From a virus (lineage: Duplodnaviria; Heunggongvirae; Uroviricota; Caudoviricetes): 46,327 nucleotides of DNA. Numbering within the stretch: position 1 is the stretch's first letter; each line of letters starts with the position of its first letter. A program made the position numbers. This document shows, one piece after another, positions 3,001 to 6,000 of the stretch. The stretch lies in the IMG/VR virus record IMGVR_UViG_2802429244_000018, positions 1 through 46,327 of that record; one strand, written 5' to 3'.

Positions 3001-6000
3001 AACACAACCGGGTCAGATTTCATTTCAACCAATCCCATACGAACCAGCGCCTTGCCTTTCCCGGACGCAAGGAATTCACGACGACCATCACTGATAATTC
3101 GCCGATAATCTTCCAGGCTACTGCAATGCTTGTGCAGATTGCATGGGTGGCATGCCGGAACCATGTTGGATATATCGTCACGGTCCTGGTGAAGCATATT
3201 TCCAGCAAAACGAATGACCGGTTTTACATGGTCTGCATGCCACTTTTCGCCAAGTTCGCAGCCGCAATAAGCGCAGCGACCGCCGAACTTCATGCGCAGT
3301 TCTGCACGTTGTTTTTTCGTCAGTGCCATATCAGCTTTCCTTATATGGATTAATTTTATTGTGCAGTGTGTTGAATGGCGCCCATACCACGTCGTTATAC
3401 AATTCAATAACTGGCTCAATTATTTTCCCGATTGCCCAGACAAAAATTAGCGGGGATATCGGTATCATCAACACGATAAACAGAACGAGAAACAGAAATT
3501 CTGTTGTTCTACTCTTTCGCGGATATTCTTTTCTGAATAATGTAGGCATATCACTCTCCTTTAGTGCGCAAGTGGTTTTTCCAGCGGTTTTGCGCCGCGC
3601 TGCGCTTATCTCGGACTCCCTCTCTGGCAATTCCAGAAAATGAAAACAACACCACACGGCGATTGCTAACTCTCAACCACTGGCTGGGGTAGCAAAATCT
3701 GTATACACGGGAGATAAGCATCTTAGCTTTACGGTTTTTCATCTTACTGCGTACCCTTTCTCTCGTCTGTTTTGCGACACGGTGGGTTTATAATTTGCAG
3801 TGAACACGATTTCACCAGAAGGGCGGATCAGCGCCCGTTTGTGGTTACTGATTGTCAACTTCACCCACCAGTTAGAACGCGGTAAAAGAAGAAGTTTTGC
3901 CTTACGGTTTTTCATCGCTTTGCTCTCCTGCGCTTCTTTGCTGCTCGTCGTGCCGCCGCAATACCTGTATGGCGGCGCTTTGGTGCCGGGATGATGCTGT
4001 CAGCCATCAGGACATGCGGTTTTGCAATTAGCGCAGAAGCCCAAAAACGAGTCGGGTACGGTAACAAGCCGATACATGCCACACGCATTACTCATCTCCT
4101 TTGATGCGAATGCCAGCGGCGCGCTCTGCTTCACTTTGTTCCCAAAACCACTTGTGAAGCGCCATAAGCTTTTCGTCAATCGGTGCATATTTGCGATTAA
4201 AGTAGGCCTGAGCATCTTTCTCAGATTCGTCCGGTAATTCGCCAGGGCCAAACAGTGTGTTATAAATCCATGCCAGTCCGCTCTTAGCGTCGCCAGTTGC
4301 CTGCCATTCGATAATGGCAGCCTGCATTACCAGAATGTTTTTCCCGATTAATAGGTCCAGTTCTTTGTACCGGTTGCGGATGTATGCATTCTCGCTTTGT
4401 AATTTTGCGTTGCGCTTCTCTTCGGCTTCCAGTTTCTTGTAGAGAGCATCCCAACTTGTCGAGTTATCCATAACCAGCTTTGTAACCCGCTCTTCGCGTG
4501 ATTTGTAATGCTCCAGTTCATTCAGCAACGCCTGCACTACTTCTGGGTTGAAAGCTGCGATATAACGAGCGTTGTTCTCTGCGTTTTTCTGTCCGTCAAA
4601 GCCGGTCCATTTGATAACGTCTTCACATCGTTTATCACCGGGCGTATGCACCGCATACGTACCTGTACCCGGCGAAATAAATGCGACCCATTCGCCCTGT
4701 GTTGCCTGTTTTGCTATCTCACGCAGTGCCTGGTAATTAATTTCGCTCATGTCACATCACCCTGAATCCGTTGCATTTACGTAAAAAATCGCAGATATAG
4801 CTCTTCATTTTTTCGTGCCAATCTCGATCATTCCCATTGCACCAACCATCAGGTGGAGTCCAGTTTTCTATCAGAGCAGCCATTTTCTTTGCTTTTGCAG
4901 GAGTAGCTGTTGCGGTATCGCAGTAATGACGAGTGTCAACCAACGTATCCATACCATCGATATCAAGTACGCAAAACCATGTGTGATTCGGCATTTCAAC
5001 AGATGGTATTTGTTGCCCACGTCGACGTTTATCAATAAGACATACAGTCACTGGTTGCCTCCTTTGCAAAGCTGTTCCGCACAATGCAGCAGGGCGTCCG
5101 TCGCATCTTTAAGCGTCACTAGCTCGTCATCATCCAGTCCTACTCCCCTCGCGTCCATGACAAACGCCGCGCAAAGGTCGTTAAACGCCTCCGCCCGCAC
5201 TTCAGCCAAGAAAGCATCGGTGGCTGGAGTTTCGCTGTGGTGTAGGGCATCGTTGATAATCATTGCAACAACTCCGGCCTGCCCTGCATCCGTGACCGAC
5301 ACATGCTCAAGAGTTACGGCCATTGCGTGTTTCAGCCCGGCGTTCTCCGCCGCCAGCGCCGCGAATTTAGCTTCAAGTTCCGCGTAATCACTATGACGCA
5401 CCATGTCAGTACAGAATGACTCTCCTATTATTGGTGGTGATAATTGGTCACTGATAATTGTGTATATTTTCACTTCTTTCATTTATTCCCACTCCGCCAC
5501 ATCGCATTCAGATATTTGTTTTGATTCACTGATGGAAAAGAATTTCTCTTAAGCAATTCCTCTCTCGATGGCATTGGCTTTACGCGTTGGCGAATAATCA
5601 TTTCTGCCGGAATGAATGCCGGGATTGTATGCAAGTCCTCTCATGGTAAATTCCTCAGTCATTACTGATAGCGCCATAGCGTGAGCGGTAATTACGCAGG
5701 CGCGGGTCGATATATTCAGGGAATTTGTCTATTGTCGCTTTTCGCAACGGTCTCATTGCTGTTTCGTTTGTTCGGTCCTTCTCATCTTTTAATGCGAGCT
5801 GTATATCGCGTCGGTACATCCGTTCTGCTTTTGTTTCTGGTGGAAGATCGATAAACGTGTCGAAAATGTTTTTGATATTTTCCAGCACCTCCGCCTTGGA
5901 GCTACCGGAGCAATTGCGCGGGTCATCCGCACCATACAGAGGCGCTGGCATAATGGGAGCCTTATTTTCAGTAATCAGAAAGGAGGGTAATCGTTCTGGC

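Follow-up and report, generated by a model that had tools for sequence, protein, structure and literature searches.

Two overlapping small basic genes with a common MKNRKAK start are probable sister genes in the early-left operon of a lambdoid prophage

The window analysed here, a 46,327-nucleotide stretch of a tailed phage (Caudoviricetes; IMG/VR record IMGVR_UViG_2802429244_000018), carries on its minus strand two small overlapping reading frames, ORF58 (3739..3915) and ORF63 (3551..3742). They encode proteins of 58 and 63 amino acids, both of which are strongly basic (computed pI 11.66 and 11.78; net charge +11.6 and +13.6, respectively). The TGA stop codon of ORF58 and the ATG of ORF63 are interlocked in an ATGA (3739..3742, minus strand), and both proteins start with MKNRKAK; the coordinates, strand, overlap and common start given in the sequence-only reading of this DNA were all found again when the sequence was re-read. 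The AGGAG ribosome-binding site proposed there for ORF58 is also in place (3925..3929, minus strand, i.e., read from 3929 to 3925), 9 nt before the ATG and within the 3' end of the preceding gene. ORF63 possesses only a weak, long-spaced Shine-Dalgarno-like AAGGG (3754..3758, minus strand), 11 nt before its ATG and within the ORF58 tail. Furthermore, the last codons and the stop codon of ORF63 form the sequence AGGAGAGTGA (3551..3560, minus strand), which is at the same time the Shine-Dalgarno sequence of the gene that follows. A 15-nt segment repeated at the two starts had been noted as well; the 46-kb window indeed has two exact copies of GATGAAAAACCGTAA and no more, at 3902..3916 (copy 1, ORF58) and 3729..3743 (copy 2, ORF63), both on the minus strand. 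Relative to its start codon, either copy covers the same bases: the one preceding the ATG, those of codons 1-4 and two of codon 5. In 100 dinucleotide-preserving shuffles of the window no match to it was found, even with one mismatch allowed.

Besides these two ORFs, the minus strand encodes, in the order of transcription, a cI-like repressor, N, Kil, an Ead/Ea22-like protein, ORF58b, ORF58, ORF63, a DUF4014 protein, an HNH protein, a DUF551 protein, Xis and Int; the lambdoid regulators recognised in the window are the repressor, N, Kil and CII. ORF58b (3912..4088, minus strand; 58 amino acids, pI 12.0, Arg-rich tail RRAAKKRRRAKR, phrog_13831) is coupled to ORF58 by a further ATGA, and the Ead/Ea22-like gene (4088..4750, minus strand) overlaps ORF58b by TAATG. 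The pair thus stands inside a coupled chain, with these two genes upstream, and, contrary to what had been thought, does not head it. Directly downstream of ORF63 lies the gene for a small DUF4014 membrane protein (3331..3549, minus strand; Pfam PF13198, E=1e-26), whose start codon (ATG, 3549) comes 1 nt after that gene's stop codon. No minus-strand promoter-like or terminator-like site was found between 6634 and 2231. These data show that ORF58 and ORF63 belong to a lambdoid prophage's long leftward early operon. Transcription of both ORFs would start at pL and proceed under N antitermination, soon after induction or infection, and ribosomes that terminate on ORF58 would account for most of the translation of ORF63 by reinitiating at 3739..3742.

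The two proteins had been thought to diverge after the shared start; instead, the homology extends from end to end (BLASTP, 37% identity, E=4e-5). Both match the 62-position HMM of phrog_1380, which is annotated as of unknown function, ORF63 with residues 1-63 on profile positions 1-62 (E=3.8e-34) and ORF58 with residues 1-58 on positions 1-60 (E=4.2e-17). With the first seven residues removed, the match is retained (E=4.1e-27 for ORF63 and 1e-9 for ORF58), and the proposal of duplicated small genes is therefore borne out with or without the common heptapeptide. Judged by sequence, ORF58 and ORF63 are full-length paralogues within this PHROG. The ORFs are also conserved: both match phrog_1380 and have relatives in many genomes. 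Members of the family are ~55-65 amino acids long and very basic, and they retain both end motifs in frame. The N-terminal motif is M-K/N-N-R-K-A-K, the central one I/V-S-N-R/H and the one close to the C-terminus S-A-A-Q-N-R-W-K-N-H, and they surround a highly variable core. In an alignment of 32 diverse members, N3, R4 and N27 are invariant, and M1, K5, A6, L9, S26, Q51, N52 and R53 are conserved in at least 90%. ORF63 possesses all of these motifs and ORF58 all but W-K-N-H.

The family is widespread but uncharacterised; its genes belong to the early-left operon of lambdoid prophages of the E. coli type. Its members include phiV10 p50/p51, VT2-Sakai p08 (ECs_1168 of Sakai Sp5) and an unannotated ORF of 933W between L0069 and L0068. 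They resemble the pair of the window in size, in their motifs and in their place after an Ead/Ea22-like gene and a small Arg-rich ORF; phiV10 p50/p51 are, moreover, an ATGA-coupled pair like ours. ORF58 differs from the known members as a diverged sub-type with an ISNHK core and the tail of an internal copy instead of QNRWKNHLRTKGE. It is 71-77% identical at the DNA level to its nearest sampled counterparts; for ORF58b and ORF63 the corresponding identity is 93-97%. The proteins themselves are already on record: the exact ORF58 protein is present in RefSeq as WP_181502844.1 (hypothetical protein, Escherichia marmotae), the exact ORF63 protein as "MULTISPECIES: hypothetical protein [Escherichia]", the same three small ORFs are annotated by PGAP in E. 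coli FDAARGOS_1059, and the phiV10 annotation already records the mutual similarity of such a pair. A profile search of 1.84 billion representative sequences gave 47 matches, one of which (P0099) is a spurious repeat protein, and no link to a larger family. The neighbourhoods of the distant relatives P0107, P0108 and P0083 consist of anonymous small phage genes only. Searches of the literature by locus tags, peptide motifs, PHROG identifier and the DUF names of the neighbouring genes returned nothing on this family; the papers on the exo-xis region deal with other ORFs.

For comparison, 85 related loci with an MKNRKAK start were retrieved using ORF63 as query. Seventy-nine arrays were typed, 42 of them single, 36 double and one triple. 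Five variants (A-E) can be distinguished, and in the multi-copy arrays they follow a fixed order (A-C in 12 arrays, D-E in eight, A-E in seven, C-E in five, B-E in four, A-C-E in one), with no copy ever placed after E in the 79 arrays; note that the sample is biased, by the choice of query and by many near-identical Stx prophages, so this order is less general than the counts suggest. ORF58 is an internal-type copy of variant B (ISNHK core) with the tail QNRREKGYAVR, and ORF63 a terminal copy of variant E (PSQWLRVSNRR core) with the canonical tail SAAQNRWKNHLRTKGE. In the other loci all 44 internal junctions are ATGA (-4) overlaps, which supports, by sequence, the translational coupling that had been claimed for the pair. 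The reading frame is intact in all 44 internal copies, i.e., in the counterparts of ORF58. Internal copies end in QNRR(K/E)KGYAVR, and W-K-N-H is missing from every one of them, as in ORF58; the last copy of an array ends in QNRWKNHLRTKGE and holds the ribosome-binding site of the next gene. Variants C and D were seen with either tail, position alone deciding which. The conserved internal junction reads ...GAAAGGGTACGCAGTAAGATGA, and the commonest context upstream of first copies is CGCAGGAGA(G/A)CAAA(A/G)CGATG. An ORF58b-type tail precedes the first copy in 58 of the 85 loci, ORF58b being the usual upstream neighbour of the array.

Siphovirus, podovirus (phiV10) and P1-like phage-plasmid backbones all carry the module, which occurs in the ea as well as in the nin region. 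In megablast searches the 365-nt pair had a match in 644 of 5426 complete E. coli genomes (~12%), mostly, among the matches listed, to the ORF63 part. The genomes with a near-identical match include Stx-converting prophages and P1-like phage-plasmids. The boundaries of the module in other genomes lie no more than about 10 nt away from the start codon, and the conserved ends therefore plausibly act as recombination substrates. The pair of the window is one form of a cassette-like array that has between one and three copies and appears to evolve through recombination, deletion and duplication at conserved gene ends. In this array the terminal copy carries the canonical tail, doubling as the ribosome-binding site of the next gene, and the internal copies a shorter tail fused to the leader of the next copy.

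Within variants, dN/dS is 0.11-0.44, with 0.11 for variant A and 0.21-0.40 for variant B; ORF58 itself, which belongs to the latter, gave 0.21-0.33 against other alleles at dS 0.6-1.2, and ORF58b gave 0.12. For ORF63 the values were 0.54-0.79 at shallow divergence and with very few substitutions, i.e., its constraint is relatively relaxed. Conserved residues are encoded by different synonymous codons (R53 by CGC, AGG, AGA or CGA; N27 by AAC and AAT at 35:32). Furthermore, the internal tail is kept as protein (RKKGYAVR/REKGYAVR) over four different variants. The low dN/dS values (0.1-0.5) together with the synonymous variation at conserved residues imply that selection acts on the proteins. At codons 2-4 (AAA AAC CGT) the synonymous positions hardly vary within the family, which points to some nucleotide constraint at the start site (translation initiation or recombination) on top of that on the protein.

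The structure was modelled with AF2. A first model from a shallower alignment was poor (pLDDT 62); the 32-sequence alignment gave a model of medium confidence (pLDDT 72.6, pTM 0.46) with a helix (residues 4-10), three strands (20-26, 29-34, 39-44) and a second helix (49-61). Foldseek searches of the PDB with both models revealed no significant neighbour (best E 0.43, unrelated proteins), and the only match of the better model in BFVD was an uncharacterised family member from phage Av-05. ORF58 and ORF63 had no match in Pfam (E<=1), NCBIfam or PADLOC, nor among PDB sequences in single-sequence and profile searches (for the profile, zero matches at E<=10); in these databases they are not similar to known toxin, antitoxin, defence or regulator families. 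For the 32 family members, Pfam returned only weak unrelated matches. From the charge, the composition of the motifs and the model, we tentatively consider it possible that the proteins form a small folded helix-three strands-helix module that binds either nucleic acid or a partner of acidic character. This contact would be due to three conserved Asn-Arg motifs together with a net charge of +12 to +14, and the variable core would set the specificity or partner of each paralogue.

Several other explanations can be weighed against two functional sister genes. The repeat rather than the ORFs could matter, as a cis-acting DNA or RNA site (for binding of a protein or sRNA, or a recombination signal), the ORFs being incidental; a regulatory site had been put forward as an option by the sequence-only reading. 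The two exact copies of GATGAAAAACCGTAA that every shuffle failed to reproduce, the near-invariance of codons 2-4 and the module boundaries at most about 10 nt from the start codon would all fit such a site. However, a search of related prophages, which had been proposed as a check, found the 15-mer in 80 loci only at the starts of family genes and nowhere else in their ~6-kb flanks. Three synonymous sites just past it differ between the two copies of the window, and codons 5-7 vary synonymously in the family. The starts fold no better than shuffled sequence (mRNA fold z-scores -0.46, +0.94 and +0.24), the region has no Rfam match at E<=1, and the frame downstream is under purifying selection. 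The cis-site explanation is thus largely refuted and extremely improbable. The shared 15 nt (the base before the ATG, then ATG AAA AAC CGT, then two bases of codon 5) is the conserved start of the family and no independent site; its A-rich, unstructured and preferred codons encode a selected N-terminal motif. It is also very unlikely that ORF58 is a dead duplicate with a truncated C-terminal motif and that ORF63 alone functions. The absence of W-K-N-H from internal copies would agree with decay, and so would the fact that the DNA of the ORF58 tail, in another frame, is the in-frame extension ahead of an ORF63-type start in fusions like P0003; with the better Shine-Dalgarno sequence at its start, ORF58 might be kept merely as a translational "launcher". 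Against this stand the 44 of 44 open internal copies, the dN/dS of variants A and B at high dS and the conservation of the internal tail as protein across four variants.

A toxin-like role, which the sequence-only reading had named beside that of a regulator and in which one or both proteins would be growth-inhibitory, host-killing peptides (cf. Kil and small prophage toxins) or a toxin with its neutralising partner, appears quite unlikely. It would suit small, strongly basic proteins expressed on derepression only, the S-N-H motif in variants A and B and the predicted order of helices and strands, which is also that of HicA as far as the order, and not the coordinates, is compared. Yet the paralogues have the same charge, unlike a toxin and its acidic or DNA-binding antitoxin, and single arrays (42) are as common as multi-copy ones (37), so neither copy needs the other. 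Together with the lack of Pfam, NCBIfam and PADLOC matches, this speaks against a type II toxin-antitoxin system; moreover, none of the 32 members matches HicA, dsrm or another toxin family in Pfam at E<=1, and HicA and dsRBD structures are absent from the 50 best Foldseek matches listed. A rather doubtful, though less remote, explanation is that the proteins are effectors of an arms race, i.e., early anti-defence or host-takeover proteins with a hypervariable core for differing host or competitor targets, two or three variants broadening the range, as they do in further polymorphic accessory cassettes of phages. The termini would be conserved for a common activity or interaction. The conserved ends around a hypervariable core are in line with this, as are the exchange of five divergent variants among backbones that are otherwise about 95% identical, the spread of the module over siphovirus, podovirus and P1-like backbones and over the ea and nin regions, and its place among the accessory genes of the early-left operon, where related loci also hold genes for Anti-RecBCD_p2 (Abc2). 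However, no PADLOC defence or anti-defence match and no Pfam or PDB match was obtained, the gene neighbourhoods of distant relatives are uninformative, and dN/dS within variants is below 1, so that positive selection is not demonstrated.

Two real, translationally coupled sister genes of an early-left operon family, with the 15-nt repeat as their conserved start, are therefore the best overall explanation, and we regard it as probable. Their products are most likely small accessory proteins that are expressed early from pL and probably bind nucleic acid; they would be non-essential factors of early phage development and no toxin-antitoxin pair. It is decidedly doubtful that the family is a hitherto undescribed polymorphic array of one to three ordered, ATGA-coupled paralogues that encodes a new class of early effectors, e.g., allele-specific RNA/DNA-binding or anti-defence proteins. 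In that case the proteins, with their conserved basic termini and hypervariable three-stranded core, might act as homo- or heterodimers, and the position-dependent tails would belong to the assembly and expression of the array. As it stands, this is another uncharacterised family of small proteins, nothing unusual as phage dark matter, with a neat cassette-like layout. Should the variable cores turn out to differ in their targets, the array would offer a compact model of how phages diversify small effectors via recombination at conserved gene ends. The lesson for annotation is that genes of this family are real and often missed or mis-framed: gene callers missed an intact ORF63 in four of six contigs, and in the 933W record (AF125520) the family gene is unannotated, L0068 being annotated from a GTG in another frame that partly overlaps it.

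Among known systems, the α-β-β-β-α modules of dsRBDs and HicA agree with the predicted structure of the family in size and in the order of secondary-structure elements. dsRBDs contact RNA through three elements, namely their first helix, the turn that links strands 1 and 2, and the beginning of the second helix, and in the model the conserved residues of the family map to these same elements. However, the agreement is limited to this order: the 32 members have no dsrm or HicA_toxin match in Pfam (E<=1), and neither fold is among the Foldseek matches listed, so the family is not placed with either of them. The T4-type internal proteins and other polymorphic accessory cassettes of phages offer an analogy of another kind, since they, like the pair of the window, are tandem small basic proteins with a short common N-terminal peptide and divergent bodies, whose alleles may be exchanged by recombination at conserved gene ends. 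In T4 this leader targets late proteins to the capsid and is removed by the prohead protease. The genes of the window are, in contrast, early-operon genes of temperate phages with neither a protease site nor late expression evident, and their location in the early-left operon argues against T4-like internal proteins.

The closest comparison is with the small exo-xis proteins of lambda and Stx phages (Orf60a, Orf61, Orf63, Orf73, Ea8.5 and Orf55). ORF58 and ORF63 have no sequence relationship to them: neither they nor the 32 relatives match the Pfam families of Orf60a/DUF1317, Orf63/DUF1382, Orf61, Orf73 or Ea8.5 (E<=1). Note that ORF63 of the window, which has no Pfam match, is unrelated to lambda orf63 (DUF1382) despite its name; lambda Orf55 was set aside as a relative since no resemblance was seen by eye. 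Nevertheless, the exo-xis proteins are encoded in the same operon and are short, early, pL-transcribed and non-essential, like the ORFs of the window would be. Gene duplications have been noted within the Stx phages' exo-xis region (PMC8614690). The family sits in the exo-xis/ea region, several of whose small proteins influence the lysis-lysogeny decision and hence the production of Shiga toxin (PMC8614690).

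ORF58 (3739..3915, 58 codons) and ORF63 (3551..3742, 63 codons) lie in tandem on the minus strand of the window and both begin with MKNRKAK. Read along the minus strand across 3300..4200, the TGA of ORF58 overlaps the ATG of ORF63 (ATGA), so the coordinates, overlap and common start proposed in the sequence-only reading stand. ORF58 has a good SD sequence (AGGAG, 3929..3925, 9 nt 5' of its ATG), and that of ORF63 is weak and spaced 11 nt; neither ORF has an in-frame start farther upstream. Within the 46-kb window there are exactly two occurrences of the 15-mer GATGAAAAACCGTAA, one at each start, and none of 100 shuffles contained a match, even with one mismatch tolerated.

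The two ORFs, which had been thought alike in their start only, align along their whole length (37% identity, E=4e-5, BLASTP). Furthermore, both match end to end the phrog_1380 profile (62 positions, unknown function; E=4e-17 for ORF58, 4e-34 for ORF63). If the heptapeptide is removed, the profile match persists (1e-9 and 4e-27) and the direct pairwise match weakens to E=0.011. The suggested gene duplication is thus confirmed, as one of full-length paralogues, and by every testable criterion both proteins are members of phrog_1380. Homologues share the motifs M-K/N-N-R-K-A-K-x-L at the N-terminus, I/V-S-N-R/H in mid-protein and S-A-A-Q-N-R-W-K-N-H near the C-terminus, with a highly variable core between them; N3, R4 and N27 do not vary in a diverse set of 32 members. 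With 47 representatives at E<=1e-3 among 1.84 billion proteins, one of them spurious, the family is small, and no relatives were found in Pfam, NCBIfam, PADLOC or PDB. Both proteins are strongly basic (pI 11.7 and net charge +12 for ORF58, 11.8 and +14 for ORF63). An AlphaFold2 model from a 32-sequence alignment (medium confidence, pLDDT 72.6, pTM 0.46) predicts a helix (4-10), three strands (20-26, 29-34, 39-44) and a second helix (49-61). Foldseek found no significant neighbour of this model in PDB, and the sole one in BFVD is another uncharacterised family member.

Loci were retrieved from IMG/VR with an ORF63 query (80 loci) and, together with reference loci, scanned for genes that start with the MKNRKAK codons, and the copies were typed. 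The 79 typed arrays comprise 42 single, 36 double and one triple; these counts are not independent, as the loci were retrieved with an ORF63 query and many are near-identical Stx prophages. Five core variants were distinguished, A and B (ISNHK), C and D (W-x-W...SNRR) and E (PSQWLRVSNRR), and their order is invariably A or B, then C or D, then E (A-C 12 arrays, D-E 8, A-E 7, C-E 5, B-E, the type of the window pair, 4, A-C-E 1). The A-C-E triple (L024, 1194..1737 of IMG/VR UViG_3300008491_000015), with two ATGA junctions, is the largest array seen. With six further B-E loci added (85 loci), the ATGA overlap is present at all 44 internal junctions. The canonical tail ...QNRWKNHLRTKGE* is found on every last copy, and its final codons, AAAGGAGAGTGA, serve as SD for the following gene. 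Internal copies end in ...QNRR(K/E)KGYAVR*; variants C and D occur with either tail, array position alone deciding. In single-copy loci the upstream genes vary and similarity starts ~10 nt 5' of the ATG, at the SD; in-frame fusion proteins (e.g., homologue P0003) show that the DNA of the internal tail, read in a different frame, encodes the residues that directly precede the ORF63-type start. The exact window pair is found in at least 24 contigs on differing backbones, including P22-like erf/abc2 regions and a nin-region site between replication gene P and the terminase. Divergence from related loci is concentrated in ORF58 (71-77% DNA identity), whereas the flanking ORF63 and ORF58b (the small basic ORF directly upstream) retain 93-97%. 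Taken together, variant order, ATGA junctions, position-dependent tails, varied backbones and ORF58 divergence mark the family, on comparison of these sequences, as a small mobile cassette array that appears to evolve by recombination, deletion and duplication at conserved ends. Such an ordered cassette organisation of one to three copies with position-dependent tails was not found in the literature searched.

dN/dS within variants is 0.11 (A), 0.40 (B), 0.19 (C), 0.12 (D) and 0.44 (E); it is 0.21-0.33 for the window ORF58 against other alleles (at dS 0.6-1.2), 0.54-0.79 for ORF63, based on just a few substitutions, and 0.12-0.16 for neighbouring genes. Conserved residues are encoded by varied synonymous codons (R53: CGC 48, AGG 13, AGA 5, CGA 1; N27: AAC 35, AAT 32; Q51: CAA 47, CAG 17; K7: AAG 43, AAA 24), and both end motifs stay in frame in members of 55-65 aa. 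Selection therefore acts on the proteins, somewhat more weakly than for the neighbours. The proposal that the 15-nt repeat is a DNA or RNA regulatory site found no support. Sought in related prophages, the 15-mer appeared solely at family start codons (80 loci), and the three synonymous sites directly 3' of it differ between the window copies (AAG GCA AAA vs AAA GCT AAG). mRNA folding was not better than in shuffles (z-scores -0.46 and +0.94 at the two starts, +0.24 at the ORF63 stop), and there was no Rfam match in 2800..4800. Codons 2-4 (AAA AAC CGT) are almost invariant across the family, which we attribute to selection that keeps the initiation region A-rich, unstructured and in preferred codons; recombination at the gene ends possibly adds to it.

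On the minus strand, the pair is preceded by genes for a DUF7739 protein (4752..5084), an Ead/Ea22-like protein (4088..4750) and ORF58b (3912..4088), and followed by those for a DUF4014 membrane protein (3331..3549, starting 1 nt past the ORF63 stop), an HNH endonuclease (ATG at 3329, end 2964), a DUF551 protein (2311..2967), xis (1052..1270) and int (1..1074). Farther upstream lie the genes for Kil (7433..7636, minus strand), the N antiterminator (9487..9906) and a cI-like repressor (11021..11734); the CII gene has the opposite orientation. In view of this context, and as no promoter-like or terminator-like site was found on the minus strand from 6634 to 2231, the pair is embedded in the pL, N-dependent leftward early operon of a lambdoid prophage, in its accessory exo-xis/ea region. 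Contrary to what had been supposed, the coupled chain begins upstream of the pair, since ORF58b is ATGA-coupled to ORF58. ORF58b (phrog_13831, pI 12.0, dN/dS 0.12) has an Arg-rich tail, RRAAKKRRRAKR; as 58 of 85 loci have such a tail upstream of their first MKNRKAK copy, ORF58b may be a functional partner.

Note that the mechanically called HNH ORF (2964..3419, minus strand) begins within the DUF4014 gene, at a TTG; the true start is likely the ATG at 3329, 1 nt past the DUF4014 stop, and PGAP annotates the protein (121 aa) from the equivalent start in another locus (L002). A full-length Rfam match to sRNA-Xcc1 (RF02221; 2021..2110, minus strand; 65.4 bits, gathering score 53) lies in the gap that separates a 217-aa ORF (1356..2009) from the DUF551 gene. 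An Nmad5 (nucleotide-modification-associated domain 5) gene (8852..9535, minus strand, E=5.5e-71) lies directly downstream of the N gene, overlapping its end. The Kil homologue has an N-terminal extension of 31 residues and adjoins a 340-aa protein (7710..8732, minus strand) of mostly E/A/K/R-rich, coiled-coil-like low complexity that has no Pfam match. Adjacent phage-borne genes for tRNA-Asn(GTT) and tRNA-Thr(TGT) are present at 20665..20820 (plus strand). A terminator-like hairpin (GGGCG...CGCCC with a T-rich tail; 3821..3836, plus strand), antisense within ORF58, lies outside the conserved parts of the ORF and is probably due to chance.

Databases already list the genes, as hypothetical proteins belonging to a PHROG that is named but uncharacterised. 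In E. coli FDAARGOS_1059, PGAP calls all three small ORFs (ORF58b, ORF58 and ORF63) as hypothetical proteins. Identical copies of both window proteins are on record: WP_181502844.1 (Escherichia marmotae) for ORF58, and an entry titled 'MULTISPECIES: hypothetical protein [Escherichia]' for ORF63. Phage phiV10 has the equivalent pair, p50/p51, described in its annotation as resembling one another and VT2-Sakai p08, and the Sakai prophage Sp5 has a single copy (ECs_1168). Among 5426 complete E. coli genomes, 644 carry a near-identical match to the pair, often on phage-plasmids; among the matches listed it mostly covers the ORF63 part, just 4 genomes matching at least 80% of the pair. The family was found by tblastn in 144 phage records (Stx phages, phiV10, HK225, TL-2011, P1-like D6 and RCS47, some Salmonella phages), where the matches carry a hypothetical-protein type of annotation, none, or a neighbouring gene's label. 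The family is systematically under-annotated, since gene callers skip an intact ORF63 in four of six exact-pair contigs (L085, L086, L087 and L090, at 3174..3365). In the original record of 933W (AF125520; 1765..1953 and 1883..2170), the family gene is unannotated, and L0068, as annotated, begins from a GTG in a different frame and partly overlaps it; the true start of the downstream gene is probably the ATG that follows AAGGAG (MAIAASYTMHLY...).

ORF58 and ORF63 are real, selected, paralogous genes of the early-left operon, and we regard this identity and organisation as probable. Both would be transcribed from pL under N antitermination, and ORF63 would be translated mainly by reinitiation after ORF58, resulting in a roughly coupled output. 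The products would be small folded basic modules. Of their three conserved Asn-Arg motifs, the model places one where helix 1 begins, one in the turn that joins strands 1 and 2, and one where helix 2 begins; these motifs could bind nucleic acid or an acidic partner, with the variable core setting the specificity. Nucleic-acid binding as such is a tentative assignment. The main functional alternative, that of arms-race effectors serving anti-defence or host takeover, we consider unlikely, and the toxin-like role that had been raised is more doubtful still. A classical toxin-antitoxin pair is ruled out by anatomy, as the paralogues are like-charged and single copies are as common as pairs.

In its location and type of gene, though not in sequence, the pair is like the other small exo-xis proteins that lambda and Stx phages encode (PMC8614690); despite its name, ORF63 is distinct from lambda orf63 (DUF1382). 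The predicted order of secondary-structure elements is the same as in dsRBD and HicA modules, although membership in either failed in sequence and Foldseek tests. The internal proteins of T4 are likewise tandem and basic with a common N-terminal peptide; however, ORF58 and ORF63 are early genes of temperate phages, and this likeness is therefore one of analogy only.
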